Of a DNA stretch of 64,000 nucleotides, positions 8,210 through 63,943 are shown in pieces. Numbering within the stretch: the stretch's first letter is position 1; the number at the start of each line of letters is the position of its first letter. The stretch spans positions 9,176,001-9,240,000 of the forward strand of contig OZ024758.1 of assembly GCA_964016885.1 (NCBI GenBank), in the 5' to 3' direction. Position numbers and translations under genes: made by a program. This DNA is from Eledone cirrhosa. Lineage: Eukaryota. The notes under the pieces were generated by a model. It saw only the letters and a program-made list of their open reading frames with translations. It searched no databases and had not been told where the DNA came from.

Positions 8210-13126
<4,917 letters not shown>

Positions 13127-13326: not shown

Positions 13327-13659
13327 TAACCAAGATGATATTTACCAAAAAGAAGAACAAGTCAACATCATTGGATATCATCAGGGTTGCAGGTGTTATA
13401 TCAGAGTTTTCCTTCTCCTAGAATTCTACCTTGACTAAGGCTAAGGGGTCATCTCTCCCGGTGATTTTGGATGGCCATTGACTCTTAAGAGCTCCTTTGA
13501 CCTTTGACAGGTTTTGTTTTTAGTCCTGCAGGATGTCCAAAGTCACCCTCCTCACCAAGAAACCTTGGTGGGGTTGCCAGTTTAGTCGCCAACGACCCGA
13601 CCATGAGACAGGTTGTACTGGGATACATGTTACCAGTAGCACCAACTGGTGACCTGACA
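13327..13659 (-). mobile_element. probable RTE LINE 5' UTR
   Basis: Homologous to 28405-28770 (+). Contains TAGGAGAAGGAAAACTCTGA, a motif I recognise from RTE/BovB 5' UTRs. Confidence 0.6.
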
Positions 13660-20335
<6,676 letters not shown>

Positions 20336-20340
20336 TATAT

Positions 20341-21725
20341 ACTTATACATAAGTATATATACATATACATAAGTATATATACATATACATAAGTATATAT
20401 ACATATACATAAGTATATATACATATACATAAGTATATATACATATACATAAGTATATATACATATACATAAGTATATATACATATACACAAGTATATAT
20501 ACATATACACAAGTATATATACATATACACAAGTATATATACATATACACAAGTATATATACATATACACAAGTATATATACATATACACAAGTATATAT
20601 ACATATACACAAGTATATATACATATACACAAGTATATATACATATACACAAGTATATATACATATACACAAGTATATATACATATACACAAGTATATAT
20701 ACATATACACAAGTATATACATATACACAAGTATATACATACGTATATATACACACAAGTATATATGTGTATATACACACAAGTATATATGTGTATATAC
20801 ACACAAGTATATATGTGTATATACACACAAGTATATATGTGTATATACACACAAGTATATATGTGTATATACACACAAGTATATATGTGTATATACACAC
20901 AAGTATATATGTGTATATACACACAAGTATATATGTGTATATACACACGTATATATACGTATATACACACAAGTATATATGTGTATATACACACGTATAT
21001 ATACGCAAGTATATATGTGTATATACACGTATATATACACAAGTATATATGTGTATATACACGTATATATACACAAGTATATATGTGTATATACACGTAT
21101 ATATACACAAGTATATATGTGTATATACACGTATATATACACAAGTATATATGTGTATATACACGTATATATACACAAGTATATATGTTTATATACACGT
21201 ATATATACACAAGTATATATGTGTATATACACGTATATATACACAAGTATATATGTGTATATACACGTATATATACACAAGTATATATGTGTATATACAC
21301 GTATATATACACAAGTATATATGTGTATATACACGTATATATACGTATATACACGTATATATACACAAGTATATATGTGTATATACACGTATATATACAC
21401 AAGTATATATGTGTATATACACGTATATATACACAAGTATATATGTGTATATACACGTATATATACACAAGTATATATGTGTATATACACGTATATATAC
21501 ACAAGTATATATGTGTATATACACGTATATATACACAAGTATATGTGTGTATATACACGTATATATACACAAGTATATGTGTGTATATACACGTATATAT
21601 ACACAAGTATATGTGTGTATATACACGTATATATACACAAGTATATGTGTGTTTATACACGTATATATACACAAGTATATGTGTGTTTATACACGTATAT
21701 ATACACAAGTATATGTGTATATACA
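20341..21725. repeat. three successive minisatellites (20, 24, 34 bp units)
   Basis: AAGTATATATACATATACA(T/C) at about 20341-20720; AAGTATATATGTGTATATACACAC at about 20750-20950; ACACAAGTATATATGTGTATATACACGTATATAT at about 21000-21720. Confidence 0.95.
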
Positions 21726-21751
21726 TACGTATATGTGAGTATATACGTACG

Positions 21752-21793
<42 letters not shown>

Positions 21794-24700
21794 TACACTA
21801 TATATATATATATACACATATATATATATCTAGATACACATATATATATATATATATATACACATATATATATATATATATGTGTATATATATATATATA
21901 TATAAGCACTACAATTAAATAACAAATAAAGGATGGCAATACCAGTTGGCTGAAATTTATAAAAGAAATAAAAGATGCAGAAGTACATAATTTAGAGAAG
22001 AACTATTCCAGTATTTGTCTTCAACAAACCCAAATAAACTTTTAGCTACATGCTGCAGTAAGAGATTTGCTTCATTTTCTTATACATATTTCTGAAGCAA
22101 TTTACAGCACACCATATCTATCGCATGAAAGTTGAAAAACAGTAACACTTGTGCATAAGTCTCTGAAATATGTAATTGAAAAGAATAAAAGAATTGTCAT
22201 ATCCTTCTAAATCTTCACACTACATCAATGCTGTTAAGTCAATGACAACATTAGAAATGTTAACTCTGTGACACGATCTGAATAAGTGAAACTGTAGAAG
22301 AAAACGAAAAGAATAAAAAATCAATAAATAAATAAATAAATAAATAAAAAAAAAATCAAGGCACCAGTTCTGCGTTACTCTTGCAAACTATATATTCTAT
22401 TCTCATATATAATATACTGGCTCGGAAATATATCTTTCTTAGAGCTATTTTGTTGTAAGAGACTATTTTGAGTTCCTAACTCAATATATACCTTTGATAG
22501 ATTAGGTTATATAGCAGAGATTACAGCTCTTTTGGAAAATACCCACTGAGTGACGAACCAATAGAGTAATGAATGATTAAGCAATTCTAATAACATAAAA
22601 GTGCAACGTATAAGTGAGGGGGTGTAGCTACATTTTTATAGCAAGCAAAACAATGCTTATAACATTGGATGTAAAGGGTGATATACACAAGATTCCTAAC
22701 TGAAATTCTTAATTTTGTGAAAGAAAACAAACCCAGTGGCAAATGTTAGCAACACAAAGAAAAGGGAGACAATTTCAAAAAATTAAGTATTAATCCCTCA
22801 CGTTAATTTACATGCTATTGAACAACAATGAAATTTACAGCTAATACCTATGTAGGTGTGTAGCTCGCTTCCTACGGGGTTACATTACAGGGCTCTTTGG
22901 TATTTTAATGAGGAGCCTTAGTTCTAACATGAAAATAAACATCTATCAAGGGCCTGAAGAGGCTTGAGATTTACGGCAAAAATCTTGAGGCAATTTTAAT
23001 CCAGTCATGTTTATGCAGAAGAAACTGTATTTGATAACGATAATCATTGGTAGATCTCCCAAATAACGACTAAAGGTTACATGTATAAAACCTTAAGATG
23101 GTTGTTAAAGAAAACGAATAGCCAGTGCCGATGTCAAGTTGTAGTTATTAATGAAATATTTTATCGACATCTTACGAAAGATACTGGTAATCGGTGAAGA
23201 AATGAACAACAAACGCATGTTGTGTGCGCGCAAGCGCGTGTTGTATGTGCAGCAATAAACTACTTCAGTTATCGACAATTGATACTTAAACTATGCAAAT
23301 TATGTTCTTGTAAATTGACGTATTACTAAGTACTGGAGTTTAAGAGTTAAGATTTGACTGAGACTGAGTATGTGTAAACCGGCAACGAGGTATAAGAATA
23401 ACTAAATCTAGGTCCCCCTCAAGTAGTATCTATATAAAGTGATTACCAGAGCATAATTATACGTTTAAAGTGTTGAAATCTAACCAACAGAAACCTGTTG
23501 AAACTATATAATATATTACTGGCGGTAAATAAACAAACAAACTATATTAACCAAGCAAATTTTAAATTATGGCTATGCCTGGTAATGATTCTATAATAGT
23601 AAGTCAGTAAAATAAAATATGAAGTTACAAGCAGTTCTATTACATCTGGACAATTGAAGTATTGTGAACGCAAATTTTTTTTTTTATTCACTAAAAAGTA
23701 TTCCTAAAAGTACACATAATCGTCGGATAGGAAACAACAGCAATCGTTTCTCTCCGTACACAGTAAAAATTAAAATTCAAAATTATAGTTTAATCATATC
23801 AAAACATTTTGTTAAATAATTGTAATAGGATCAACAAAAATAGATTTTGACGTCAGTTGTAGCTAAAGAAGCAAATAAGAAGAGGGGGGAGGGGGGATTC
23901 CGAAATTGTAAATTTTTTTTTATTATTATTGTAAAATGTTACGAAGAAACATTGGAGAAATCAAATATCTTCCTATTGTGAAGGACTAAAAAAAAAAACA
24001 ATTGGAAAAAAATTTGAAATATTTCATTCAGCCACCAAACGTTATATTATGAATTTCGACCTCATGACCTGGCGTTTAGGGTTTCATTAAACACTCAAAC
24101 CTATCAACCGTATAAGAGGTTTCAATAGCCTAATCTTTGGGCAGTTTCCAGTGTAGCAACGGTAAACAAAATACATCGAGACATTTTCGATAAAGATATT
24201 TTTATACACGATTTTACATACGGAAAAAAAAAAAGAAAAAAGAAAAAGAAAAAAAATGGAGAAAATGTTCGAGTGATTAATAATTGTACGATGAAATTCA
24301 GATGGATTGTAAAAAAAATGGACAAAATTAAAGCTAGTTAATATGCGAAAGTCGCAATTTAGTGCGAATGGAGATCAAGAAGTGAATATTATACGAGATG
24401 AGTAAGAAAAATGTATGTAATAACGGAGCAAGCCGGTGGTAGTGAGTGAATCAACCAAGGCTTTACTGTTAGTTGTTAACCATTGTAGATGGATACAGAA
24501 ATATTAGATAGATATATAATGCAGGCAAGCGAGAGACATGTTCAACAACCATTTTGGTGAAGGAAGAAGCTATCGCTTCTTTAACATTACAGAACCATAC
24601 ACACGTTCATACCGCTCCTATCTTATTACAGTAATGACACATTTGATATATCATCGGAACCAAACTCAATGTTGAGAATAATTCTAGCCCCTTCTATAAG

Positions 24701-28770: not shown

Positions 28771-29067
28771 GGGATTGGTCGAGTGCAAGGCTTTTCCCCA
28801 CTTAAAAAACCTTCAAAGCAAAGTTTTACACAATTTTCATTATTATTTATAGTAATTGTTCTGGTTTTGGACACACACATTTCATATATATAGTAGTGTG
28901 TGTGTATGTGTGTAAATATGTGTATATAGATATTTGTATGCAAATATATATATATATAAACATAATGAAAAAATATATGTATATATAGAGAGAAAAAGCC
29001 ATGTATCATATAAGAAACACAGTATATTGTATATATACCAAATACATATTCCATAGAATATATATAC

Positions 29068-29606
29068 ATGTTACATGGCAGTGAGACCTGGGCGCTGTGT
29101 GTAGAAGACTTGCGTAGATTAGAAAGAAACGAAGCTTGCATGCTCCGATGGATGTGTAATAGTAATATACGCGAACGGCAAAGCATAAATGAATTGAGTG
29201 AGAGACTGGGCATAAGTGGAATCAAATGCTGTGTGCAGGAGAGGAGGATGCGTTGGTATGGACATGTGATGCGTATGAAGTATGACAGCTGCATAAAAAG
29301 GTGCAGAGCACTAAAAGTTGATGGAAGCCAGGAGTGGGGGGACCCCAAAAAACCTGGGATGAGGTGATAAAAACTGATCTTGCCCAATTGCACCTCTCAA
29401 TGGCGATGACACAGGACCATGACCTCTAGTGTTACGCAGTAATACAGAAGACCCGACTTCCCACAGGAACAAGTCTAAGCTGAAGCATATAGACAATATG
29501 CCCCCATCCCCTCCCACTGTAAAGTGGTCATGTAGGTGTCACAACAAAAAGCACCCAGTCCACACTGTAAAGTGGAAGAATGGACATAAAACGGTGATGA
29601 TGATGA
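29068..29606 (+). mobile_element. RTE LINE 3' fragment (same family as 6551-8209)
   Basis: MLHGSETWALCVEDLRRLERNEACMLRWMCNSNIRERQSINEL...RMRWYGHVMRMK; ends in (GAT)n. Confidence 0.9.
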
Positions 29607-35745: not shown

Positions 35746-37397
35746 CTACCTTACTGCACAAATTGGAGACCATGAGAGGGAGGGGTACCTCGCGAACTGG
35801 GATGCAAAAGATCCATGTTGGCTTACGCCGACGACGTCACCATGGTGGTGTTGAACACCAAACACGTCCAGATGCTCGGCACCACTCTCAATCTCAAGGA
35901 ATACGAAGCAAAGATAAACCAGGAAAAGTCGATAGGCTTGCAACTCGGCACCTGGAGAGGCAAGTCCATGCCGTCCAACAGCGTCGTGGGGCACTGGATG
36001 GAAGGACCGGTTAAATTGCTCGGGGTCTGGTTCGGTCCGGTCTTCCAGATGGAGAAAAACTGGAGCGAGGTGATGAGCAGGGTGGCTTCTCTCACCCAGA
36101 AATGGGCTGAGAGGAGGCTGTCTCTGAAAGGTCGGGTGGAGTTGGCGAATGCGTACATCGCGTCCGTCATCTGCTACCGCCTGACCGTCGTACCTTGCCC
36201 CCGTCCAACTCTGACCAAAATAGAGGGCCTTCTCTTTCACTTTTTGTGGAAGGGACATGCTCCCATGGTCAAACGATCCATCTGCTGTCAGCACCCATTG
36301 CGTGGAGGACTGGGCATGCCGTGGCTGATGATGCGCTGAGGCTGCGACATCTCTGGTGCTTCCTTGATAGTGAACAGGTATGGTCACTGCTTGCCAGATG
36401 TGGTCTCCATGATGGAGTTGCAGTCCTGGATCAAGCGCTTGGGAGCTGGAATGTCTCCTAGCACTCACCACGCTCTACCAGCTGGCACTGGTATCGGTGG
36501 AACAACCACCTCAGCGTTCTATAGAGGGCTAGTGGAGGGGAAGAGCAACAACGTTCTCGGGGAAACCCTGGGCGTTGAAGACGATCAGCTGTTCGCTCTC
36601 TTTGAGAGAACTTTCATCCTGGGGCCTATGGAGAACTTCCAGAAATCCCTAGCCTGGCAGTACTTCCAGGGGGCGTTGCCGGTTCAGGATAAGCTTTACA
36701 GGCATAGAGGTGCTGTCAGCCGAACGTGTCGAAGATGCACGCAGGGTGACGAAACCATCCTGCACGCACTCGTTCAGTGACCGAGAATTGCTGAATTGTG
36801 GGGCTATGTCGAACAGTTGCTGTCGCGTGTAGGACGGATCCGGTTATCGACTGAGTCCATTGTGCAGATAGCCCCACCATCCTCCATTAAAGAGGAGGAA
36901 GGGAAGGCAGTCTTCATCTGCCTGGTGGCCATGATGAAAGAGATTGTGTGGTGGACAAGGTTGAAAGGATTGAAGACGGACACTTTCCTCTCCGGCCAAT
37001 CCCTGATTAACTTTTTCAAGTTTCACTTGAAGAGGAAAATCAGGGTGGGGAGGCAAGTGCCGTCTTCTAGTAAGTTTGTAGAAAGGTGGGTGAAAGTGGC
37101 GAGTCTGGTCTGAGTGAACGGGCCCGCTCTGAGTATGTTCCTGTAGACTGAGGAGTGGGAAAACTGAGAGAGGGTGTTTGTCCTGGTGGTCAGGGTGGCT
37201 GTGGTCTTTTGTGTGGTTTTCGCCACGAGGATCCTTGGGGAATTTTTGTTGTTTGAATTTAAAAAAAATTTGTTTTTGCACATTTCTATAACCTTTTTAC
37301 ATGGCCAAAACCCCCTTTGTACCATCCTGTACCATCTGTAATGTTTTTCTTCATGTTAGCCCTTGTGGCCAATAAAGAAACCATTATTATTATTATT
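35746..37397 (+). mobile_element. 5'-truncated Tx1/L1-clade LINE (RT, CCHC knuckle, 3' tail)
   Basis: AYADDVT, KLLGVWFG, WAERRLSLKGR, GGLGMP, CRRC..ETILHALVQ(C>stop)P; AATAAA at 37371 then (ATT)n; markedly higher GC than the flanks. Confidence 0.9.
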
Positions 37398-37398
37398 A

Positions 37399-37580
37399 GG
37401 GCAGTGGATTGGCAGAATTAGTAGAGCATTGGACAACATGCTTAGTGGCACAGAGTTACGACCATTTACGTTCTGAGTTCAAATCCTGCCGATGTTAGTT
37501 TTGCTTTTCATCCTGACTGAGGTCAATTTAATCGACTTTCTCCTCAAATGCTGGTCTTGTGCCTATAGTAGAAACAATTA
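37399..37580 (+). mobile_element. tRNA-derived SINE (family B), internally deleted
   Basis: TGGCAGAATTAG A box, GAGTTCAAATCC B box, GTAGAAACAATTATT tail. Confidence 0.85.
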
Positions 37581-37620
37581 TTATAATTATCATCATCGTC
37601 ATCATTATTAAGTTGTCAAG

Positions 37621-37803
37621 CGGTGAATTGGCAGTATCGGTAGAGGGTTGGACGCCATGCTTTCCAGCATAGTTACGTCCCTTTACGATCTGAGTTCAAA
37701 TCCCGCCGAGGTTGACTTTGCCTTTCATCCTTACGGGGTCGAGAAAATAAAGTACCAGTGATGCACTGGGTAATTGCTGGCCTTGTGCCAAATAGTAGAA
37801 ACA
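37621..37803 (+). mobile_element. tRNA-derived SINE (family B) with TSD
   Basis: A/B boxes; perfect 17-bp TSD ATTATTAAGTTGTCAAG at 37604-37620 and 37804-37820. Confidence 0.93.
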
Positions 37804-38442
37804 ATTATTAAGTTGTCAAGCCTTTGGGTTATTTATCAATTTCCGCCAACAACAGTTGGATATTGAAAGATTAAAATGAAAACGACTGTTCTTTCTTTTG
37901 CTAGAATCTGAAGAAAACTTAGAAAATTAGAAGTTTCAGCTCTCTGAGGCATTTGAAATAAATATATATAGTAAAATACTTTATAGTGGTGAATAATTGA
38001 AATGGTAATAATCTAAATATAAAGGGATGTAACAAATTAAATTATATCCATTTACATGTTCAGTTAACTTTGATTGTTATGTCTTTAAGGTTGGTAGAAC
38101 TGTCAGTAATGTAGCTACAAAATATTTGGTTTTGGTGCCTTATTGTATTAAAAGAAAAACCTACTAGAACAATTTCCATTTTGTAAAGGGACATTATCCT
38201 CCCTAATATTAGAATATTAGAGTTCTTTCCCTTGAATTAAACCTTTGACGATTTCTGTTATTTCCGATAATACATCCCAACAATATATTTGCTAAATATT
38301 TAGTTATATTTCAATTAGTATTTATTCGAACGAACTCTTGAAACTCTGTCAGATCTCTAGTACCCATGATTGTATTATATTTCAGAATCAACAGTTCTTT
38401 TGTTCAATATTTAAGAAGGCCTCTGCTTTATTCGTTTATTCA

Positions 38443-38632
38443 ATAATTGTTTCTACGTTAGGCACAAGGCCAGTAAATTACCCAGTGTATTACTGGTACT
38501 TTATTTTATCGACCCCGTAAGGATGAAAGGCAAAGTTAACCTCGGCGGGATTTGAACTCAGAATAGCAAGGGCCGTAACTCTATGCGTCAAAGCATGGCG
38601 TCCGACTCTCTACCAATACTGCCAATTCACCG
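38443..38632 (-). mobile_element. tRNA-derived SINE (family B)
   Basis: Reverse complement of the family B sequence. Confidence 0.9.
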
Positions 38633-39371: not shown

Positions 39372-39526
39372 ATATTCATGTTATTAAGGCGAAATAGTGA
39401 GTCTTGCTACTCTGGAGTTTCGTGTGTTTATCACAGCAAGAACTATTCTTATCTGATGACCCTGTGATAAACAGGCAAAACTCCAGAGTAGCAAGACTCA
39501 TTATTTAGCCTTAATAACATGAATAT
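39372..39526. mobile_element. palindromic mini-element with degenerate hammerhead
   Basis: About 63-bp inverted arms. Plus strand CUGAUGA(39453)-CCCUGU-GAUAA-ACAGGC-AAAA-CUCCAGAG-UA; the opposite arm retains CGAAACUCCAGAGUA. Confidence 0.7.
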
Positions 39527-40675
39527 TTAAACTCTACTTCGTCAACTACATACAGATATATATATATATATGAAGTATAAATCGAAGTTATAGCTGCAGT
39601 ATAAATAAATTGATATAGATATATATCAACAGCAGCACTAACATAGCGTGGTTCATAATAGAGGCATATATGAAACCATATACAATATGTTTATATATAA
39701 TATAACCCATGCAAGCGTGGAAGATGGACATTAAACGATGATGATGAATGATGATGATAATAAGCATACATGAATCTCGCTGTGGGTATTTTAAGTTGTA
39801 ATCATTTCACAGCTACCTCAGCATGTGTGTGTATATTTTAATGATGTATATCAGCAAATAATGTAAACATCAACGAGAGAACAGATTGTAGAAATTATAT
39901 GATCAGGTTTGCTATTGACTAAATCTGTTGTGAAAGCACGTGGCTTAGTGGTTATAGAATTGGATTCGCAATAGTGAGATTGCGATTTCAATTCCCAGAC
40001 GGAGCGATATATTATGTCCTTGAGTTGCGATCAGTAGATAGTATCAGCAATGGAAAGACCAATGGAAACATTGTTTATTTAGTCAGATTTGACAAGATTC
40101 ACTGCACGGAAACGAGGTTTGGTAAAATAAAAAAACATGTTTAGATCTTTAAGAAAGAATGTGATGTGTTGCACTATGCTGACGCTCTTAGGTTAAACCT
40201 GAGAAGTTGATTCAAGTAAATATATCTTTCCTTTACAAACATCATTCTTGTGTTTACTTGAAAGAAACCAGTGAAGTATAGTGTGCTGAAAGTGGTTGAG
40301 AGATAATATAATGTACTGAAAGGCTTTGAGCAATTCTGTGGATGGGGCAAGGCCTGAGTGGTTGATGTGGTAGTATAATGGACAGAGCTATATAAGCAGG
40401 TCTTGAAGTAAAGAAAGAAAAGTTAACATCAAAGTACAAAGTGCATGCATGTGTATGTGTATATGCATGTGTATGGTGTGTGTGTATGTGTGTGCACGTG
40501 TGTGTGTGTAAGTGTGTTCATATGTCTGTGTTCATGTGTGTGTATTTGTATATGCATGCATGTGTATATGTTTTATTTTTGTGAATGTTTATTTTATGCT
40601 GAAAAATGTTGATATATTCAATATACACTTAAGAAAACTTAGAAAATTAGAAGTTTCAGCTCTCTGAAGCATTTG

Positions 40676-43107: not shown

Positions 43108-43400
43108 ATCATCATCATCATCATTTTATGTCCGCTTTTCCCTGCTTGGAAGAGTGGGACGGGTCCTATTCAGCACAGCATCTCTCCACTTGTCACGGTC
43201 CTTCGCCATCTCCTCCGTGAGCTTCAGTGATCTGAGGTCAGCTCTCACCTCCTCCGCCCATGTTTTTCGTGGTCTCCCTCTACAGTGTCTTCCTTCTATT
43301 GGGATTTCTTGGCATTTGTTTACCCAGTGGTCATCCTCCATGCGCATCACATGTCCATACCATCTCAGTCTTCTCTCTCGCACACCACAACTTATCCCTC
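43108..43400 (-). mobile_element. RTE LINE 3' end
   Basis: RERRLRWYGHVMRMEDDHWVNKC...RGRPRKTW...DRDKWR; (TGA)n tail. Confidence 0.9.
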
Positions 43401-43432
43401 TTATACACAGTATAAGATATATATATATGTGA

Positions 43433-43815
43433 AAATGAAAAGTGAAATGAAAGGCAGAGTGTATGATGCGTGTATACGAACAGCAATGTTACATGGTAGT
43501 GAGACCTGGGCGCTGTCTGTAGAAGACTTGCGCAGATTAGAAAGAAACGAAGCTTGCATGCTCTGATCGCCCTGCACTTTTTTATACAGCTGTCGTCTTT
43601 CATGCACATCACATGACCATACCAACGTAATCTCCTCTCAATTAAACAGCATCTGATCCCTTTTATTCCTAATTTCTAACTTAGTTTGTTTATGTTTTGA
43701 CGTTCGGGTATATTACTATTACACATCCAACAGAGCATGCTTCATTCCTTACCAATCTGCGCAGGTCCTCCGCACACAATGCCCATGTCTCACTGCCATG
43801 TAATATTGCTGTGTG
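43433..43815. mobile_element. two RTE fragments joined in inverted orientation
   Basis: 43433-43567 (+) KGRVYDACIRTAMLHGSETWALSVEDLRRLERNEACML; 43568-43815 (-) TAILHGSETWALCAEDLRRL...RLRWYGHVMCMKDDSCIKKCRA. Confidence 0.85.
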
Positions 43816-44013: not shown

Positions 44014-45734
44014 GGTTTTTATTTTGTGTGTCTCTCCTTTGTTCTGTCCTACAAGATGGTGTAGGACAGAACAAAGGAAGCCTCAGTGGGTGTGTGGCCT
44101 TAAGCTATAGCTTATTTACTTATAGGTAAGTTCAGCACTGAAAGACTTGCAGCATTGCAGTTTGCACACAAGCATTATACAATCTACATTTTACTCTGAG
44201 CGAAAAACCCCTACTTGTCAGTCGAGGTAATAGTTCCCTGAATTAGGCCAACTCATTCTTATTTTAAGTATGTTTCAGTACACCCACCTTTGCTGCAGAT
44301 TAGGTCACCTAGGTAACAAAAACTGTCAATAACCTGTAATAAACTGCAGATCAATTACACTTACATACACATGGACACGTTTGTATATAAGCTATTATGT
44401 ATGAAATCATTATCTATATACTGATTGTATATATTTATATCTGTTGCTTTGGTGATATAATACACCAGTCATTACATTGCTTATACTTTGGTTCTGGTAT
44501 TTGATATATTTTATAAAAGATAATAAGGATAATAATATTGAACATTATCAGTTGGTATTAGCAGCAGACACCAGATTTAATTTTATAGAAATGATTAAAT
44601 TATGGACTACAGTGATTCTTATCTAAGACCAACTTGATAATTATGAAGTATAGTTTTCAACAAGTTGCAGATGATAGAAAAAGTAAAGTCCTTTAGATAT
44701 GAATAAATACATCTTTATATATTTTGAGACAGAACCTAAAGCATAGAGCCAAACACTATTACATAAACAAAAGATGTCATATATATTATGACATTGTCTA
44801 TAACCTATGAAAACATATATTGATTGGGTATTAGTCAACCAGCTTAGATGTTAACAGTGTGATGCAGATCCTATTCTTTACCCTGTGTGTGTACTCATAC
44901 TGCATCCTGTCCTTGTGTTGTGTTCGTGACTAAAACGTTTAGCTTTAGACAGATGAGTCCATTAGCTCTAAGTACTGTAGATGGTATAACCCACCATTGT
45001 AAACTGTAACAGTATTGTAGAATTGATAAGGTTTTTGTTGTTGTTCTTGAATTACAATTCTGAGTTTAATTCCTTCCAAGTGGAAAACACTCTACTTGTG
45101 GTGATATCTGAGTGCAAGAGCTTTATCTGTTTACTTCAGTGATATAAACCCGAGATAAGCATTCGTCCCAAAGGAAGAGGAAAGGATATAACCTATAGAA
45201 AATATTAGTTTAGATATTTAGGTGTGGCTGCAACCAAAAAAAAACAACAACTATATCCTCATAAATATTAAAAAAACCAGCTGACAAAGCTGGTCATAAA
45301 TCATAAGTGATGAATTTTTTGTTGGTTTACAGTGATCTCTTCATCCATGAGAATTACCCATGATAAACTGGTTTCTTACACAGTTATTACAACCATAGAA
45401 ATAAAAATATCAAGTGTTAGCTTAATGGACATGGAAACTCTTGAAAGGATTACACATGGAGACTAACATGTACATAAATATATAACTATAGATTGACAAG
45501 CAGATAGAGGTAGGCAGATATTTATATATGTATAACAATAGCCTTAACAACTATTTACAAATAAGAGAAAATTAGCCTCTAACCCATGAGCTGCAACTGA
45601 AAAAATATTGATGAAGCCCAACATATTGATGAGACAAGAAGAAGTAAAGAGAATGTGGAAGAGAATATACAAACGTTAATAAAAGTATTTTTTGTTTACT
45701 TGGAAGTTAAATCCTAAAAGGACAAACACAACAG

Positions 45735-46376: not shown

Positions 46377-46453
46377 TTTAATATAGAAAAGCTTCCTCAT
46401 GATTTCTCACGAATGAAACAGTTCTAGTCCTGTAGAAGCTTTTCTATATTAAA
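46377..46453 (+). ncRNA. type I hammerhead ribozyme motif with one core substitution
   Basis: Perfect 19-bp stem I (46377-46395 / 46435-46453) encloses CUCAUGA-UUUC-UCAC-GAAU-GAAA-CAG-UUCUAGUC-CUG-UA. Confidence 0.7.
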
Positions 46454-46489
46454 TATATATATATATATATATATATATTCCGTTTACCA

Positions 46490-46532
<43 letters not shown>

Positions 46533-46629
46533 ACTAAATGTTAATAAGGTTCATTGATTACTCAATGAATATAGTTTTTTTTACAATAGATTCAAAGCAC
46601 TCAACAATGAAGTTTTCTGGAGTTATTAG

Positions 46630-46735
46630 TATTATTCAAAATATTAATAAATGAAGACGTTCACATAATCAAAATATAATAAAACATATATTTTGATTAT
46701 GTGAACGTCTTCATTTATTAATATTTTGAATAATA
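46630..46735. repeat. near-perfect palindrome (about 48-bp arms)
   Basis: TATTATTCAAAATATTAATAAATGAAGACGTTCACATAATCAAAATATA / reverse complement, with a short spacer. Confidence 0.9.
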
Positions 46736-47090
46736 TATAATAATAATAATAATGAAATTATTGTATACAGTGCTCAGGTGCACTACAACTCATCAAAGGT
46801 GCATGTATAGTACATAGAATAATGTACAAATGTCAGGAAAATGAACAGTGTATGAGTCATGATATAATAATAACAATAATGAAATATTGTGTACAGTGCC
46901 CAGGTGCACCACAGCTCATCAAAAAAGTGCATGTACAGTACATAGGGCAATGCACAAACATCAGTAAAATGAACAGTGCACGAGTCATGATACACACATG
47001 TGTGCATGTGTATGGAAGGGGTACATCAAGTGTAGTTTTGGCGTATTTCGGGAAGCATGAGTGTCTTAAAGGATGCAGTGTCTCGGCCTA
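46736..47090 (-). mobile_element. LINE (CR1/L2-like) 3' end with tandemly duplicated terminus
   Basis: Minus strand RDTASFKTLMLPEIRQNYT* followed by UTR; about 115-bp duplication (46750-46865 / 46878-46990), each ending in (ATT)n on the minus strand. Confidence 0.55.
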
Positions 47091-47220
47091 TATATGCAGA
47101 AGTTCTATTTAAATTGTTGGGATACAACAAGCAAATATTTTTATAGCTGATATAAAGCACTCAACAAATTATTGGAGTAAAAATACGATATATTAACAAA
47201 TGGAAACTATATTTATAAAA

Positions 47221-47300
47221 CCATATTCATTTCATTATACATATTTCAAGGACACCAAGTTAAATTATGGTGTGCTTTCATCAGATAAAATATAATATAG
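47221..47300 (-). ncRNA. minimal type I hammerhead ribozyme
   Basis: CUAUAUUAUAUUUUAU-CUGAUGA-AAGCACACCA-loop-UGGUGUCCUU-GAAA-UAUGUA-UA-AUGAAAUGAAUAUGG. Same family as 59708/59899; lies inside the inverted repeat 47185-47390. Confidence 0.8.
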
Positions 47301-47515
47301 AGCAGTTTTATAAATAAATATTGACATACCCTTAAAGAATGAAATAAATATGGTTTTATAAATATAGTTTCCATTTGTTAATATATCGTATATATATATA
47401 GTTTCAGAAGATCCTGTTTACAGTGAAAGCAGAAATTCTTTGCTAAAACTTAAATCTGTACTAATTATAAATAAATAATATATATATATATATATAATTT
47501 ATTTATTTATTTATA

Positions 47516-47945
47516 TATTAGTAGAGATTTATATATATATTAGTAGAGATTTATATATATATTAGTACAGATTTATATATATATTAGTACAAATTTATAT
47601 ATATATTAGTACAGATTTATATATATATATTAGTACAGATTTATATATATATATATTAGTACAGATTTATATATATATTAGTACAGATTTATATATATAT
47701 ATTAGTACAGATTTTTATATATATATTAGTACAAATTTATATATATATTAGTACAGATTTATATATATATATTAGTACAAATTTATATATATATTAGTAC
47801 AGATTTATATATATATATTAGTACAGATTTATATATATATATTAGTACAAATTTATATATATATTAGTACAGATTTATATATATATATTAGTACAGATTT
47901 ATATATATATATTAGTACAGATTTATATATATATATTAGTACAGA

Positions 47946-47950
<5 letters not shown>
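47516..47950. repeat. ATTAGTACAGATTT(AT)n minisatellite (about 22-28 bp)
   Basis: About 18 copies with a variable TA spacer; an inverted single copy lies at about 47452-47466. Confidence 0.93.
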
Positions 47951-47991
<41 letters not shown>

Positions 47992-48193
47992 GATTGGTGC
48001 TCTGAAATAGCGATGTATATACGAGTGTATGTATAGTATATTTGGCAATATACCGTATGTTTAATTAAAAACATTTTGAAGACTAAACGCTATCGGTTTT
48101 AAAGTAGTGACTATGTCACTTACTTCTTTTCGTCGAAAGAAGGGAGAGAAGCTGACAGTCTGTTTCACGCTGTTGGCGATCATCAGAGCCACG

Positions 48194-48237
<44 letters not shown>

Positions 48238-48260
48238 ATGTAATAAACAACATAAGGCAA

Positions 48261-48326
48261 TTATTCCATTTACCAGTGGTTTCTTAAAAGCAAAAGGTTT
48301 TGCTTTCAATCCTCAGAATGAAAAAA
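48261..48326 (-). ncRNA. minimal type I hammerhead ribozyme (intact core, GUA site)
   Basis: UUUCAUU-CUGAGGA-UUGAAAGCAAA-ACCU-UUUGCUUUUAA-GAAA-CCACUGG-UA-AAUGGAA; 11-bp stem II, stem III ACCA/UGGU. Confidence 0.85.
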
Positions 48327-48411
48327 TCCTGGTTTGTTTATTGAAGTTGGATCTTAAAAAACCTTTTTTAAAAACCTTTTTTAAGATCCAATTTCAATAA
48401 ACAAACCAGGA

Positions 48412-48477
48412 TTTTTTCATTCTGAGGATTGAAAGCAAAACCTTTTGCTTTTAAGAAACCACTGATAAATGGAATAA
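48412..48477 (+). ncRNA. minimal type I hammerhead ribozyme (mirror copy)
   Basis: CUGAGGA at 48422, GAAA at 48455; one G>A in stem III gives an AUA site. Right arm of the 48231-48507 palindrome. Confidence 0.8.
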
Positions 48478-48599
48478 TTGCCTTATGTTGTTTATTACAT
48501 AATAATAATTAAGCTCTGTTGCTTACATAGAGCACTCTTTTTTCCTGGACTTTTCCGACGGAATTACTTCATTCACACATATATATATATATATATATA

Positions 48600-48909
48600 T
48601 ATAACAAAGAAGGTGAGGTAAGATACCAGGTGGACCATAATGCACCAGAGTACTCAATACTTAGGGTAGTAGAGTGGGTAATGGGAAAAGAGTTAGGACC
48701 CCGACGGGTGAGCTCCGACTGTTTCGACAGCTAGATCTAAACTGTTCAGATCAAGCTGTCGAAATGGCCGAAGCTCAGCTGTCGGGGTCTTGACTCTTTT
48801 TCTATATATATATATATATATATATACACAGACACAAACACACATACGCATATACACATATACTTATACATGTATATAAATATGTGCATGTGTTTGAGAC
48901 TGTACGTAG

Positions 48910-48988
<79 letters not shown>

Positions 48989-49182
48989 AGAAAGTATGAC
49001 CCCGACGGCAGAGCTCAAGCCGTTTTGATGGCTATTTCTGGAATCCAGAAATAGCCGTCGAAACGGCTTGAGCTCTGCCGTCGGTGTTAAACATTTTCCT
49101 ATTACCCACTCTACTACCCTAAGTATTGAGTACTCTGGTGTGTTATGGTCCATCTGGTTCCTTACCGCAACTCCTTTGTTAT
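48600..49182. mobile_element. two inverted copies of a TA-embedded mini-element, each with a fold-back and half-hammerhead
   Basis: 48602-48797 and 48990-49182 are inverted homologues. Internal palindromes at about 48693-48793 and 49001-49084 carry CGAAACGGC-loop-GCCGUC. Confidence 0.7.
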
Positions 49183-49197
49183 ATATATATACTTGAC

Positions 49198-49234
<37 letters not shown>

Positions 49235-49759
49235 GTACAGTTTGTGACTGTACGTATATATGTGACTGTACGTATATATATATATATATATATATATACG
49301 TACAGTCACAAACAGAAGCACATGCATAGTAGACAGCATAAAGAGGATAGAGTGAATAAGTAAACCGATTTGAATAAAACCTGTTTTGTATGTCACATTG
49401 TATGCTGAGTGTTCTTGAAAGGTGTTCTAGTCATGAATATTTCATATTTATACATATCAACGACTACACTGAGGTGTGATTAGGCATTTATTAGTCATAT
49501 GACTTTCTACTTTAACTGGATTGTTACTTGGCGGGTAATTTTAACCCTTTAGTTACTGTTTTTAACCGGTAATGTTATATTTGTAGAACAATTATAATTT
49601 TAATTCTTTTCAAATCTTTGGTATTTCTACAAAATAATAAGATGAATGCTAATTTTGAAAATAGAAACAAAGTGTTACACTATTTTTTCTATTAATAACA
49701 TATATTTCTGGTAAATATATAATTGAGGAGGTTTATTTAATCTTATATTAAGTTTAATC

Positions 49760-50910
49760 TTATGGAGCAGTGGAAAACTGCCAGTGTCATTCCTCTGTTT
49801 AAAAAGGGTGACCGCACGTCGCCTGTCAACTATTGTCCAGTCAGACTTACTAGCTGCATTGCCAAACTGATGGAATCCTGTGTCAGAGAAACACTTTGGA
49901 ACTTCTGAAATTCTCACAGTCTTATCTGGCCCTCGCAATTTGGATTTTTCCTTGAAGACATCACCCGGATCACTGATGGCAGCTCATGGGTTGATGTTGT
50001 TTACTTTGCAAAAGCTTTCAATTCTGTGCCTCACAAAAGACTTATGGCAAAACTCTCTGCAATGGGTGTGAGAGATGATCTTTTTAACTGGTTGAAGTCT
50101 TTCATTCTCCGTCGAAGAGAGGTAGTCACGGTTCTAGGACAGCATTCCTTACCATATGAGATGTCATCTGGTGTACCACAGGGATCTGTTCTTGGTCCCC
50201 TTTTGTTTGTGGCATATATTAATGACATAGGTGCCAACTTAAAGAATGCCACAGTACTGAAATATGCAGAAGACATCAAGCTGTACCTTGAGATAAAAAG
50301 GACAGATCCTGAACACTATAGATCTTTCCTGCAATCAGACCTGGACACAATGCAGCAATGGATCACGGACTGGCAACTCAAGTTGGTTGTAGACAAGTGT
50401 ACCACCAATAATTTTTTTAGGAAAAACCCAGTGTCCATATACTCCCTCCCCAACACTAATATCAAGAAGTCTTCTTGTGAATGTGACCTGGGCATTACTG
50501 TCAGCAGCAATTTGCATTGGACGAAGCACATCTCTAAAATTGTCAAGAAGGCCGAAGGTGTCTTAGCATCACTCAGCAAGGCATTTGTCAGCCATTCTCC
50601 AGCTATCTATTTAAAGTAGTATATAGCTATGGTGCAACCACACTTAGAATTTGCATCACCAGCCTGGAACCCTTATCTTGCTCAGAACATTGATCTCCTG
50701 GAAACTGTTCAGAGACGTTCAGCCAAGCGAATACCCTCCATCAGGCATCTACCATACTCTGAACACCTTGCTTCCCTGGGCATGGATACACTGAAGCTCC
50801 AACGTCTAGGCAACTGCCTTGGTAAATACCCACAAAATTATTAACCATCTTGCTAACAACAACCCTGAGCAACTTTTTGATTTCCATGTGTCTAACACAC
50901 GTGGGCATGC
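49760..50910 (+). mobile_element. CR1/L2-like LINE RT fragment
   Basis: VPHKRLMAKL, SGVPQGSVLGPLLFVAYIND, YAEDIKL, DLGITVSSNLHWTKHI, VQPHLEFASPAWNPY, LETVQRR; stop at 50617. Confidence 0.92.
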
Positions 50911-52435: not shown

Positions 52436-54240
52436 CTGAAATTTTTGTTGTTGCAATAAAATTTACATTGTGATGCGATGCATATGTCAGGATTCTTCTT
52501 TCTTCTTTAGTTCCTTTTGCTTCCTATGGAGCATCGGGCAATGATAAGTCTCCATTGTGTATAGTTAAAAGGCCTGCTCCCAGGTCAGGCTCATATCTGC
52601 TAGAACTTCCTTCACAGATGTCAACCAAGTCATGATGAGTCTGCCTTCAGTCATGGGTATTAGGGTATGTAAAAGTTGTTGTACAGAAACTCTCAGGAGA
52701 GCTTGACAGCAGAAGGTCTTCAGAGTAGACCCCCCCCCCCCTCATCCTCAAGCAAATGTTTCAGGTTTTTAACTTCAGGAGGATGTAGATGTTTAAAAGA
52801 CATGCTGGGATGTTTGGCTTTCAATAAAAAAGAGAGGGTTATAAGTTAAAGATAGATCAATAAAATTTTTATCTAATATTATTTTACAACCATATTTAAC
52901 ACTTTTAGTGTTTTTATTAAGAAGTAAAAATAAAGATAAAGCCAAACAAATGATAAATTCTCTTACTGCTTGCCATAAGGAATCCAGTGGTTTTCATAGT
53001 CTTGTTGTTTACAATAGTTATAAATGTGTATGTTGTACATCTGTTGGTTCTGATGTCTACTGCTCCAGTTGTTTTGATCAACAGAACAGCCTGCTTGTGA
53101 AATTAATGTGCAAGTGATTGAACATTGCACAGATATGTGTACTCTTAACATAGTTCTCAAGGAGATTCAGTGTGAACATCATAACCATGTGTCTTCACAA
53201 TAGTTATAAATAAGGGAAAGAAAACACTATTAAACTATACAACAGTCCTTAGCAATATAAATTTTGGTCTCTGCTGTAAACCTTTGTTCCCTAGTATCTT
53301 CTTGTGATTAGAATGTCAGATGGAATGCTTTGTGGTATTCATTTGGGCTTTCAGTACATTGAGTTCAAAACTTGTTAAGATCAACTTTGCTTTTCATCCA
53401 TTCAAAGTTAATAAGAAACCATCAGTCCAGTATTGGGGTCAATTCTTCTTCTTTATCTGTTGCTTACTTTCCTTCTCTCTTCCCTGGAAGAAACCAGCTG
53501 TGATCAGACCTGGAGAGGAGATTGGTTCCCCCAGATTTAAAATCTCCAAAACACACTGTACATCACTACAAGACCCCTATGATTCCAACAGGAGTTATGA
53601 GTCCACATAGACATGTATCTTCTAGTGAGACATCAGTATTCTATGAAAAGTAGGAAGTATAGAGAGCATTTACTAAGTATTGTCAGGGTCATTTAGCTGA
53701 GTATACTCTATAAACTCTCTGAACTGATAGCGCATACTGTAGTAAAGATAACCAAAACTCTGTTGGTTTAATCACAATGGAAAAATTAGGCTTATAAGTT
53801 GTTTGACCAGATGGCTTCTTTTCACATAAGAGAAATATTCTCATGACATTCCTTAAGAAGCTAGATCTTTGTGAAAACATGATTTTATCAGCTTTTCATT
53901 AACTTTGAGAGGAGTGGCAATATTTTAGTAGATAAAGTGTTAGCTTTATACAGCTGAAACAGTATGAGTTCATATCCCATCATTGTCATAAATTTTCTTT
54001 GTATCGAGATAGCTAAGTGAATCAACTTTATCTACCTTTTATGGATTGGCAGTATCAGTAGAGCATGAGATTCGACTTTCCCCTCCATCAAAATTATTGC
54101 CTATATAAAGAAATATTATATTGTTCATCAAACTTTTCATTTAGTAGTGTTCATACAGTTTTTTTTTTTTCTGTGGGTGGGTATTGAGAATTAATATATC
54201 GACTGCTGAGTCAGAAATACATTGATTATATTGAAAAAAG

Positions 54241-54418
54241 AGCGTTGGATTGGCAGTACTGGTAGAGGGTTGAACGCCATGCTTTCCAGCATAGAGTTAC
54301 GGCCCTTTACGGTTTGAGTTCAAATCTCGCTGGGGTTAACTTTCATCCTTACGGGGTCGATAAAATAAAACACGAGTGTACTGGGATAATTGCTGGCCTT
54401 GTGCCAAAAGTAGAAACA
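54241..54418 (+). mobile_element. tRNA-derived SINE (family B) with TSD
   Basis: A/B boxes; ATTATATTGAAAAAA repeated on both sides. Confidence 0.9.
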
Positions 54419-55055
54419 ATTATATTGAAAAAACCCACAAAAAACAAAACATATTCGCTCATGTGTCGTATTCCTTAGTTATTTTAAAGATAAGTTGTTA
54501 CATAAAACAACGAGGCTTTTAAATGAAGTAAAATAGGTACAAATCCTACTTCAGTGTGAAGTAAATAACATCATGTTGGATAGTCAAATATCAGAATCTC
54601 CATAAATATGCAACCCATGCTATTATAGAGAAGTGGATTTAAAAAATATTAACTTAACCACCCTCCTTAGAAATATGTTGATATATTGACCTTACAATGA
54701 AACCACTACATGGACGCTTGACCGGCTAGAAATAACAGCCAAATTCCCTTCAACTCACACCTTAGCATTTTGAAAAAAAAAGGAATGACATACAGCAGAA
54801 GGTGTTCCCCAAAACATTGTCTGATAATAAAATAGGATAATCATGGTTGGAATGCTTTAACCATAAAATTGCTTCATTCTAGCTGATCTGAGACTAAAGC
54901 AATTATATACATAGGATTGTATGAAGCTGGTCTTATTTCAGATATGAACTACTTGAAACAATGCAATGTCTAAGTGTCAAATTCTGTTATGCTACATACA
55001 CAATAAACGAAACATCCTGTTAGAATAGTAAAACATATTAGCTTTTACTATCTTG

Positions 55056-55238
55056 TGGATTGGCAGTATCGGTAGAGGGTCGGACGCCATGCTTTCCAGC
55101 ATAGTTACGTCCCTTTACGGTCTGAGTTCAAATCCCGCCGAGGTTGACTTTGCCTTTCATCCTTACGGGGTCGATAAAATAAAGTACCAGTAATGCACTG
55201 GGTAATTGCTGGCCCTGTGCCTAAAGTAGAAACAATTA
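55056..55238 (+). mobile_element. tRNA-derived SINE (family B)
   Basis: Near-identical to 37621-37803. Confidence 0.92.
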
Positions 55239-55342
55239 TGTTATAGTGTAAGTGAGGGCAGTTGTAATCACGAAGTTGACTGTGCAGTCGAATTCCCTGC
55301 AAAACTACTGTCTAGGAAAAGGCTGTTTTTGTCTTGTCATAA

Positions 55343-55462
55343 CCTGGTAAGGATGAAAGGCAAAGTTAACATCGACGGGATTTGAACTCAGACCGTAAAG
55401 GGACGTAACTATGCTGGAAAGCAGGCGTCCGACCCTCTACCGATACTGCCAATTAACCGCCC
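55343..55462 (-). mobile_element. 3'-truncated SINE (family B) with TSD
   Basis: Head only; 14-bp TSD TTGTCTTGTCATAA at 55329-55342 and 55463-55476. Confidence 0.88.
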
Positions 55463-59100: not shown

Positions 59101-59557
59101 CTAGAATATACATACATTATCATCATCATCATCATCACCATTTAACATCCATTTTTACATGCTAGCAAGATTTAGATAACTTGTCCCGTTGTGAGACAAT
59201 TCCAATCAGATAACTGTGTCTTGCTAATACAGAACGTTTCTAATGCCAATCACACATTGTAAACTGGGTGCTTTTTATCGTAGAAGCAAAATGACCACTT
59301 TACAGTGTGGACTGGGCGCTTTTTGTAGTGTCACCAAACAATCACTTTTCAATTTACCATCTAAATTAAGGAACTAAATCAAATAGCATTTACAAAGTGC
59401 TGAGGAAATAGATTTATAAAATGCAAGATGCTCAAGTGTCTCTAATAATGGTAATAATTGTTTCTACATTTAGCACAAGGCCAGCAATTTGAAGGAAAGG
59501 GAAAAGTTGATTAAATCGACCCCAGTGCATTACTGGTGCTTTATTTTATCAAGCCTC

Positions 59558-59592
<35 letters not shown>

Positions 59593-59707
59593 TTATATTT
59601 AATTTGTTGGGATACAAGCAAATATTTTTATAACTGATATAAAGCACTCAACACATTTTTGGAGTAAAAATACAATATATTAATAAATGGAAACTATATT
59701 TATAAAA

Positions 59708-59787
59708 CCATATTTATTTCATTATACATATTTCAAGGACACCAAAGCAAATTATGGTGCGCTTTCATCAGATAAAATATAATATAG
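59708..59787 (-). ncRNA. minimal type I hammerhead ribozyme
   Basis: Reverse complement of the 59899-59978 motif (TCATCAG at 59765-59771); left arm of the palindrome 59671-60015. Confidence 0.82.
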
Positions 59788-59898
59788 ATCAGTTTTATAA
59801 ACAAATATTGACATAATACCCTTAAAAGAATGCGACCATGTCTGTTGGAAGCTCCGGATTCTTTTAAGGGTATGTCAATATTTGTTTATAAAACTGAT

Positions 59899-59978
59899 CT
59901 ATATTATATTTTATCTGATGAAAGCGTACCATAATTTGCTTTGGTGTCCTTGAAATATGTATAATGAAATAAATATGG
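59899..59978 (+). ncRNA. minimal type I hammerhead ribozyme
   Basis: 15-bp stem I with one bulge, CUGAUGA at 59915, stem II AAG..UACCA/UGGUG..CUU, GAAA at 59952, self-complementary stem III AUAUGUAU; predicted cut after A59963. Confidence 0.82.
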
Positions 59979-60490
59979 TTTTATAAATATAGTTTCCATT
60001 TATTAATATATTGTATATATATATATATATATATATAAGAAAATAAGTTTTTTCTTATATCCTGCACAGGTAAAAATATAGGAAAAAGAAGTTGAAAATG
60101 CAATTGGAGTCTTTAAGAAGATTTATTTACAATAACTTTACTGGTTTCGTAGTTTTATGATTTTAAAAAGTCTGAGATGGAGAGATGTGTGACTATGGAA
60201 TGATGTGTCTTGCATTGGAGAGGTTGGGGAATTTCTTTCTGGTTTATACCAAAAACGTGATTCAGATTGCTATCTGTTTAAAGTACAATTTGGTTGGTTG
60301 TGGATGCTCCGTGATAAGGAATTAAATTTTGTTATAATTTTTACACCAAAAATTAGGAGTGCCATGGTTTAGTGACCATGGCTAGTAACAATCCCAACAT
60401 ATCAAATGTAGAGTAATTTTATTTGTGTGTGTGTGTAGAAATAGTTGTTTTTGTTTCCTCCTATGTTTGAATATGACGAGTAAAAATAAT

Positions 60491-61030
60491 TATTTCTACA
60501 TTAGGCACAAGGCCAGCAATTATTCCAGTGTATTACTGGTACTTTATTTTATCGACCCCGTAAGGATGAAAGGTAAAGTTAACCTCGGCGGGATTTCAAC
60601 TCAGAATGGCAAGGGCCGTAACTCTATGCGTCAAAGCATGGCGTCCGACCCTCTACCAATACTACCAATCCACCGCCCTGACGAGTAAAAATAATAATAA
60701 TGATTTCTACTATAGGCACAAGGCCAGTAATTTTTTTTTTTTGGGGGGGGCGAGTGGATTACATTGACCCCAGTACATTACCGGTACTTTATTTTATCGA
60801 CCCCATAAGGATGAAAAACAAAGTTAACTCAGACCGTAAAGGGCCGTACACTATGCTCCAAAGCATGGTGTCTGATGCTCTGCTGACACTGCCAATCCAA
60901 TAATGGTGTCTGATTTAGGCACAAGGCCAATAATTTTGGCAGCAGGGGAAAGTCGATTAAATTGACTTCAGTGTATTACTGGTACTTTATCGACCCCTGT
61001 ATGGATGATAGGCAAAGTGAACCTCGGCAG
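60491..61030 (-). mobile_element. cluster of three family B SINEs
   Basis: 60491-60678 with 17-bp TSD TGACGAGTAAAAATAAT (60474-60490, 60679-60695); further copies at about 60700-60900 and 60905-61030. Confidence 0.88.
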
Positions 61031-63355: not shown

Positions 63356-63393
63356 TATATAAAGAGTAGCCTTTTCTCCTGCTTAAATCATTT
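63356..63393 (+). promoter_or_regulatory. TATA box and Inr of the cofilin gene
   Basis: TATATAAAG at 63356-63364 and TCATTT at 63388-63393, about 32 nt apart and about 45 nt before the ATG. Confidence 0.65.
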
Positions 63394-63435
63394 CCCCCGT
63401 CTTCTTCGTTGACTTCTGTTCGCAATAATCTAAAT

Positions 63436-63728
63436 ATGACGTCAGGAATTTCCGTGTCCAAGGCTGCTATTGAAATGTTTCAATTTATAAAATCAAGCAA
63501 AAAAATGCGGTATGCTATATTTAATGTATCTCCTTGTGAAGCTGAAATTATTCCAGGTGACTCTGTTCCTAAACCTGATAAATTAGACCTCAGCTTAGAT
63601 GCTGTGAAGAAAGAATGGACAGAGTTTTGTACACAGCTTCCCTTAGATGGCAGCTGCTATGCAGTATATGACATGAGTTTCCAAAAACATGAAGGATCAC
63701 GGAGAGATAAACTTATTTTAGTTACTTG
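63436..63728 (+). CDS. ADF/cofilin family protein, first coding exon (partial gene)
   Basis: MTSGISVS...KKMRYAIF...WTEFCTQLP...CYAVYD...RDKLILVTW; Ser3 retained; donor TG|GTAAGT splits the Trp codon. Confidence 0.92.
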
Positions 63729-63943
63729 GTAAGTTTTAAAATTTTCTCGTCAGTTTGAAATTCTTCTCAGATTCTTTCGCAGTTCTTTTCTCTTTTAAAG
63801 GGATTATTAAAGTGGCCTATTTGAAAACTTATTACTTCTAAACTTACTTTACGGACATTTAATATTTAATAAATAAACTTATACCCGACTATTAATATCT
63901 TCGCTTTTAATCATTGAATATTTAACAGTTTTCTAAACACACA

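Follow-up and report, generated by a model that had tools for sequence, protein, structure and literature searches.

Remnants of Penelope-like elements (PLEs) with hammerhead ribozymes are already known as a class, and thousands of them occur in many animal genomes. In PLE inserts, a 5'-truncated copy in inverted orientation is often present and one end has a 30-40 bp tail, as described in PMC8557442, and their insertion is biased to microsatellites, including (TA)n (PMC8557442; PMC8969392). Head-to-head inverted pseudo-LTRs (pLTRs) are reported from rotifer PLEs, where palindromes at the junctions were read as a sign of self-priming (PMC3846280); the formation of such inverted pLTRs is treated as unresolved in both PMC8557442 and PMC3846280. 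The minimal hammerheads of metazoan PLEs have a palindromic helix III and a long helix II, and opposite-strand hammerhead pairs 100-700 bp apart have been ascribed to truncated PLEs (PMC4209133). According to PMC11167929, a purified PLE protein nicks AT-rich DNA on both strands and extends both, with two internal start sites of reverse transcription delimiting the tail. The role of the hammerhead itself is described as unclear (PMC8557442), and cleavage was reported to be dispensable in the one in vitro PLE system (PMC11167929).

Here we analyse two loci, A (59591-60016) and B (47101-47391), both situated in one 64-kb stretch of DNA (the whole of which is referred to as the window) and sharing a common unit of about 250 nt. 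We consider it likely that they are independent, heavily 5'-truncated inserts of one endonuclease-bearing PLE family, of which only the hammerhead-bearing pLTR region was copied.

Architecture of the two inserts

The main parts of the two loci are as follows.

59559..59590, no strand: (TA)n target, left flank of locus A
59591..59669, minus strand: one-sided tail of locus A, about 79 nt, the 3' extension of long arm A1
59670..59831, minus strand: left arm A1 of locus A, in the ribozyme sense
59832..59857: spacer of locus A, 26 nt, 62% GC, at the head-to-head junction, present in a single copy
59858..60016, plus strand: right, short arm A2 of locus A
60014..60037: (TA)n target, right flank of locus A
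47101..47182, minus strand: one-sided tail of locus B, about 82 nt
47101..47341, minus strand: long arm B1 of locus B, including the tail and one full hammerhead
47338..47341: 4-nt microhomology of locus B, common to the 5' ends of B1 and B2 and spanning the homologous cut position
47338..47391, plus strand: short arm B2 of locus B, comprising sequence from the cut site onward only, then (TA)n

Comparison of the window with itself aligned 59579-59832 with 47089-47341 at 90.7% identity over 257 columns (E 2e-98), in full agreement with the preliminary description, which had recognized one and the same unit at both places; its account of the unit is also accurate, except that the ribozyme lies on the minus strand of the unit as quoted there. 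Read in the ribozyme sense, each locus consists of two copies placed head to head. The inverted arms of locus A (59670-59831 and 59858-60016) extend over about 160 bp around the 26-nt spacer and hold two hammerheads, so that the second full ribozyme noted previously is indeed present, in an arm slightly longer than the 155 bp or so then given. At locus B the inverted arms (47183-47236 and 47338-47391) are 54 bp long with one mismatch, and there is one hammerhead; this accords with the earlier figure of about 53 bp restricted to sequence downstream of the cut, the arm starting one base 5' of the predicted cut. It was likewise correctly seen that the inverted arms stop at the same point, as the outer ends of the short arms A2 and B2 fall on the same homologous base and are followed by (TA)n. 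The long arms A1 and B1 have an extra tail of about 80 nt before the flank, and the left flank of locus B is a short TA run only. Arms of the same locus differ by two events in 159 columns at A, by one in 52 at B and by five in 65 at locus E (see below), these being substitutions and an indel. Sister arms agree within each locus, B2 having the two diagnostic bases of B1 and A2 the loop II of A1.

The 26-nt spacer of locus A, which might code for the final residues of a parent ORF, provides, in either orientation, a 13-residue open stretch ending in F-F-stop that may resemble the C-termini of Neptune elements. The published alignment of PLE endonucleases, as given in PMC8557442, ends at a conserved Asn. 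About 40-50 nt upstream of the core, the head-to-head junctions of locus A (59822-59860) and of the unrelated locus D (48355-48385) both adjoin a Phe-stop reading; this is possibly the end of a parent ORF, or possibly only T/A-rich palindromic sequence. A complementarity between the tail and the 5' flank that had been spotted by eye was dropped, the two changes of locus B in this region not being compensatory.

The hammerhead motif

The predicted ribozymes and the matches of a 23-letter hammerhead pattern are located as follows.

59708..59787, minus strand: type I hammerhead A1, core from 59771, predicted cut between 59723 and 59722
59899..59978, plus strand: type I hammerhead A2, core from 59915, predicted cut between 59963 and 59964
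47221..47300, minus strand: type I hammerhead B1, core from 47284, predicted cut between 47236 and 47235
47262-47284, minus strand; 59749-59771, minus strand; 59915-59937, plus strand: matches of the 23-letter pattern

These three matches of the 23-letter pattern in the window compare with 0.01 expected from 100 shuffles, and a type I descriptor, composed after the motifs had been seen, has four matches in the window as opposed to a single match in 200 block shuffles. The conserved core (C3-A9, G12-A14, A15.1-U16.1 and H17) is identical in A1, A2 and B1, all of which have a stem II of 10 positions (nine pairs and one C-C mismatch) with a loop II of 10 nt, a self-complementary helix III of 8 nt that includes two G-U pairs, AUA as the cleavage triplet, and a stem I of 15 bp, extendable to about 26 bp, in which there is one bulge. 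The folded domain is more stable than most shuffled versions (z -2.7 and -3.0; 4 of 500 shuffles as stable), with z values of -1.8 and -2.5 for slightly different ends of the domain. Closing helix III in the monomer is predicted to cost 2.9 kcal/mol relative to the open form, as expected for the dimer-type motifs of PLEs (PMC4209133), and the helix III duplex between two RNAs is predicted to be weak (-2.2 kcal/mol).

None of the Rfam hammerhead families matched at the gathering score anywhere in the window, and at E<=10 no hammerhead was present among the 14 matches in 59400-60200 or the 102 matches in 46400-49400, the matches in these regions being generic hairpin models below the gathering score. 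The hammerhead call thus relies on the core motif together with the stems. The putative ribozyme is classed as a type I hammerhead of the dimer type, whose expected place of action is the parent RNA. The genomic copy at locus A is probably inert, because the transcript is predicted to pair its two cores with each other, the read-through fold being one long hairpin in which 59915 pairs with 59771.

Related structures nearby

Four further loci of the window are relevant to the comparison.

46533..46743: locus F, a diverged relative of A and B without a hammerhead core; arms 46623-46678 and 46687-46743, tail to about 46533
48231..48579: locus D, an unrelated hammerhead family; cores at 48316 (minus strand, intact) and 48422 (plus strand, a helix III pair broken)
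39372..39556: locus E, a third family; decayed hammerhead, tail about 30 nt
47990..48194, minus strand: locus C, a lone hammerhead-like unit, core at 48186, without an inverted arm

At locus F the arms are 57 bp long, the tail measures about 90 nt, and the end of the short arm is aligned with that of the short arms of A and B; F has a local score of 45 against A/B, compared with 42 for the best of 2000 shuffles and 36 for the best of 731 other windows, and its orientation was set by this homology. The two hammerheads of locus D, with a 12-bp stem II and a GUA triplet, are placed head to head 106 bp apart between (TA)n on both sides, with a 72-nt tail (48508-48579); apart from the junction its arms mismatch at two positions, and at one of these a helix III pair is broken. 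At locus E the arms are 65 bp long with five mismatches, the long arm having the first half of the core only, while the second half is intact only in the short arm. Locus C, with a GUC triplet, a palindromic helix III and a U-U combination as the first pair of stem II, sits between (TA)n runs directly beside D.

All five inverted structures examined (A, B, D, E and F), which lie within 21 kb and represent three unrelated families, are arranged head to head and have a one-sided tail and simple-repeat flanks; D, E and F were picked from the window self-comparison, and the inverted structures at 48592-49191 and 44035-44078, without a hammerhead core, are excluded from this count of five out of five. 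Searching the window with a profile of A1, B1 and F, and with D, E, C and G each as a single query sequence, revealed no further copies beyond these loci, and an exact-pattern scan of prokaryotic genome contigs found no copy of the element.

Loci F, B, C and D and a pair of hairpins cluster within 2.7 kb of TA-rich DNA (46500-49200), which suggests a shared insertion hotspot. The hairpin units, at 48604-48800 and 48984-49178, are related sequences of about 190 nt in inverted orientation, each flanked by (TA)n and without a hammerhead core, with long internal hairpins that differ in sequence. A small near-perfect palindrome with arms of about 20 bp and without a TA flank is found at 44035-44078.

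Affinity of the element

A type I hammerhead inside a terminal repeat, as in PLEs, is present at A and B; the inverted, 5'-truncated head-to-head copy typical of PLE inserts is found at these two loci and at D, E and F. TA or related simple repeats occur at both insert ends, which is consistent with the bias of PLE insertion to AT-rich or microsatellite DNA. No target-site duplication could be read at the inserts. A Pfam scan of 150 of the 370 candidate reading frames of the window did not find a PLE ORF or a GIY-YIG domain; it returned non-LTR-type reverse transcriptase (RT) fragments, a cofilin domain and two sub-cutoff matches. PLEs of the endonuclease-bearing (EN+) kind code for a telomerase-like RT together with a GIY-YIG endonuclease, and their full-length copies form a direct partial tandem, pLTR-ORF-pLTR. 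Membership of A and B in PLEs, being deduced from structure with no parent ORF found, is thus best described as probable.

The closest counterparts are the EN+ PLEs (the clades Penelope/Poseidon, Neptune and Nematis), which, as described in PMC8557442 and PMC3846280, likewise have a head-to-head truncated copy, a tail at one end, a simple-repeat target, microhomology or a palindrome at the junction and a hammerhead within the repeat. They differ from the inserts at A and B in that the latter are all pLTR without an ORF and have a tail of about 80 nt rather than 30-40 nt (PMC8557442); among the tails in the window (A 79, B 82, D 72, F about 90 and E about 30 nt), only that of E fits the typical range. 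A canonical hammerhead together with the (TA)n bias would agree more closely with Neptune than with Naiad, since canonical hammerheads are described as absent from the latter (PMC8557442). Two short terms taken from the element are absent from the supplement of PMC8557442, where line breaks could hide a match.

The ribozymes agree with the PLE minimal type I hammerheads of PMC4209133 in topology, the intact core, the long helix II, the small palindromic helix III and the dispersed copies, and the opposite-strand pairs at A (144 bp apart) and D (106 bp) fall within the 100-700 bp reported there. In contrast, the PLE consensus in that paper has G10.1-C11.1 and a bulge after A9 (a consensus of >80%, with exceptions listed), whereas the motifs described here have A10.1-U11.1 and no bulge; the same A-U pair without a bulge occurs in a PLE-linked shrimp motif (Figure S3 of PMC4209133). 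Stem I also differs, being 4-5 bp in the published PLE hammerheads (PMC4209133) but 15 bp, and extendable, in ours. The Anolis Poseidon element PAc resembles A and B in having two 3' end points downstream of the hammerhead that define the tail, and in its AT-rich target; its ORF begins inside the hammerhead (PMC11167929), whereas no long ORF begins there at our loci.

Other features of the window

A dispersed repeat family of about 190 bp, SINE-like in distribution, is represented at 1-73, 37400-37810, 38442-38632, 54240-54430, 55055-55460, 59443-59560 and 60485-61030, and a fragment of it borders locus A on the left. Fragments of non-LTR retrotransposons occur at 6944-8191 (RT followed by a PHD finger), 29014-29400, 43129-43800, 35776-37110 and 49909-50616; the RT frame has 46-74% identity to diverse sequences, including ones from marine animals. 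A frame with a cofilin/ADF domain (E 6e-9) is located at 63370-63729, for which no candidate was found among proteins of 54-174 residues. A degenerate (TA)n/(CA)n tract of 13.7 kb spans 8212-21904 and includes a gap of 200 Ns (13127-13326).

Origin of the head-to-head arrangement

The proposal that the palindrome is part of the insertion mechanism is supported by the identical polarity and one-sided tail of all five structures across three unrelated families, and it matches the published structure of PLE insertions (PMC8557442, PMC3846280). By analogy with PLE biochemistry, a GIY-YIG/RT protein would nick AT-rich DNA, here (TA)n, and reverse transcription would be primed inside the element RNA, between 50 and 135 nt 3' of where the ribozyme cuts. 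The sequence shows two fixed 3' end points, separated by about 80 nt, from which a short arm and a long arm with the tail would result. The cDNA would stop after 55-270 nt and its 3' end would anneal via 3-4 nt of microhomology, most simply by fold-back, priming an inverted arm and giving a head-to-head repeat with the second arm nested in the first. The annealing point indeed varies, if arms of 160, 54 and 57 bp are read in this way, and the junctions have 3-4 nt of microhomology at B and a short common word at A. In B and E, the two loci with unambiguous orientation, the 5'-longer arm is the tail-bearing one, which agrees with the prediction of fold-back, even though nesting in two of two oriented loci has a probability of 0.25 by chance. 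We favour fold-back of one cDNA over priming from two RNAs.

The latter scenario would involve the same class of elements, but with two RNAs in one dimeric complex. Each would prime on its own strand of the target, the two RT start sites being used, and the 3' ends of the cDNAs would be joined by microhomology. The arms would then have natural RNA ends as their 5' ends, namely a fixed boundary upstream in A2 and B1, and the ribozyme cut in B2 and in the long arm of F, and the palindromic helix III would pair both RNAs and allow cleavage. We regard this course of events as possible, if somewhat unlikely. It is favoured by the start of B2 within the 4 nt spanning the predicted cut. A and F have a 13-nt block in common, which is as far from the cut site in A as from the unique 5' end of F's long arm, namely 33 nt. 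The upstream end of an arm also coincides between A (59831/59858) and B (47341). Moreover, the purified PLE protein, a predicted dimer, extends both strands (PMC11167929), and dimeric cleavage has been reported for PLE hammerheads (review PMC6765202). On the other hand, of the only two occurrences of B's junction word in the arm, one is at the cut site, and microhomology alone hence predicts this landing site; the 4-nt microhomology explains the start of the short arm of B equally well as cleavage in vivo. Two of the 11 arm ends fall near a cut, which has P 0.055-0.09 under a uniform model (0.3-0.4 for B alone) with arms that are not independent, and the cut position in F is an estimate, this locus having no core and a gapped alignment there. 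Arms of one locus never come from different subfamilies, and the weak helix III duplex predicted above also speaks against paired templates. The Anolis element, by the account in PMC11167929, inserted without needing cleavage and no RNA reads ended at the cut site, whereas one, possibly two, of the arm ends in our loci do. A more specific form of the same idea, namely that B2 and the long arm of F are cDNA of an RNA already cut in vivo, joined head to head to cDNA of a second, uncut RNA in the same integration complex with helix III pairing the templates, is a tentative suggestion from these arm ends that we think rather doubtful. No earlier report of arms as copies of pre-cut RNA was found in the literature searched, the coverage of which was incomplete.

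Three further explanations depart from a truncated PLE or from insertion as the source of the palindrome. A short non-autonomous element (a solo pLTR or a monomer resembling a retrozyme, some 240-270 nt long) that has a fixed 5' end of its own and depends on a PLE protein for mobilisation in trans would account for the 5' boundary common to A and B and for units without an ORF, and animal retrozymes, with many monomers among them, have been argued to derive from PLE pLTRs (bioRxiv 10.64898/2026.07.22.740005). The non-LTR retrozymes of animals are indeed similar in being non-coding, AT-rich and on a 150-400 nt scale, with a type I hammerhead, but they are described as head-to-tail tandem repeats (PMC7229834; bioRxiv 10.64898/2026.07.22.740005), as opposed to the head-to-head pairs found here, and no head-to-tail tandem of the unit exists in the window. 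In addition, the GC-rich 26 nt at locus A extend past the supposed boundary and are open in one frame to TAA, which fits a longer parent, and junctions near the 5' end of the pLTR are also reported in full PLEs (PMC3846280); we therefore consider such an element an unlikely source. A MITE with a TA target duplication and a hammerhead-like motif arisen by chance might be suspected from the short inverted repeats, TA flanks and absence of an ORF, yet the inverted arms are not terminal (79-82 nt of unpaired tail at one end) and are of unequal extent on the inner side (160 bp at A, 54 bp at B), and the motif passes a structural descriptor of near-zero background; the asymmetry of the ends already contradicts this interpretation, to which we attach next to no credence. 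The long unstable (TA)n tracts and the 200-N gap in the window could also raise suspicion of an assembly artefact (fold-back chimeric reads) or of an inversion after insertion beside unstable (TA)n. This is nevertheless very improbable in view of the differences between the arms of A, B and E given above. Moreover, the short arms of A and B terminate on their outer side at one homologous base, with which the corresponding end in F is aligned, and five of five loci have the same polarity.

Is the RNA fold constrained?

The probable PLE inserts A and B also allow a comparison of substitutions in the core, stems and loops, as the preliminary description had proposed. Run on A1 and B1, with difference events counted by hand from the alignment (244 columns), it gave 17 events, comprising none in the 13 core positions, two in stems I and II, three in loop II and 12 in the flanks. 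The core is hence unchanged, as had been stated, but the differences do not concentrate in the stem II loop: 12 of the 17 are in the flanks, and the three adjacent substitutions in the 10 nt of loop II represent an excess only when taken as independent (Fisher P 0.025), not when counted as one event (P 0.48). The unchanged core was rejected as evidence of constraint, zero changes in 13 nt at this divergence having P 0.39. A comparison of the ribozyme without loop II with the flanks gives P 0.15 on events; a per-column test (P 0.013-0.023), inflated by gap columns and by a misaligned start, was rejected.

More favourable is the observation that all seven A1/B1 substitutions in the 118-nt folded domain are tolerated by the fold, being located in loops or exchanging A-U and G-U pairs (P 0.004-0.03 as independent changes, 0.02-0.13 with loop II counted once); across three domain choices and both reference copies P ranges from 0.004 to 0.23, the latter value being that for the narrowest domain. 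No two-sided compensatory change was seen between A1 and B1. With the core uninformative and no compensatory pair, the earlier claim that the RNA fold is constrained is suggestive only, the tolerated substitutions being the part that speaks for it. As the arms are nearly identical within a locus (1-2 events at A and B) and differ by about 7% between the loci, most of what separates A from B probably reflects divergence between source elements, at a stage open to selection.

Implications for the role of PLE hammerheads

The value of loci A and B and their relatives lies in providing a test set for the role of the PLE hammerhead. Within 200-430 bp, short head-to-head inserts of this kind preserve the two RNA 5' ends as well as the two sites at which RT started. 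If the 5' ends turned out to pile up at the cut site, this would be genomic evidence of cleavage in vivo, favouring two templates. With five such structures in 21 kb, a microsatellite-rich genome of this kind would offer junctions in sufficient number for a direct test of PLE hammerhead function.
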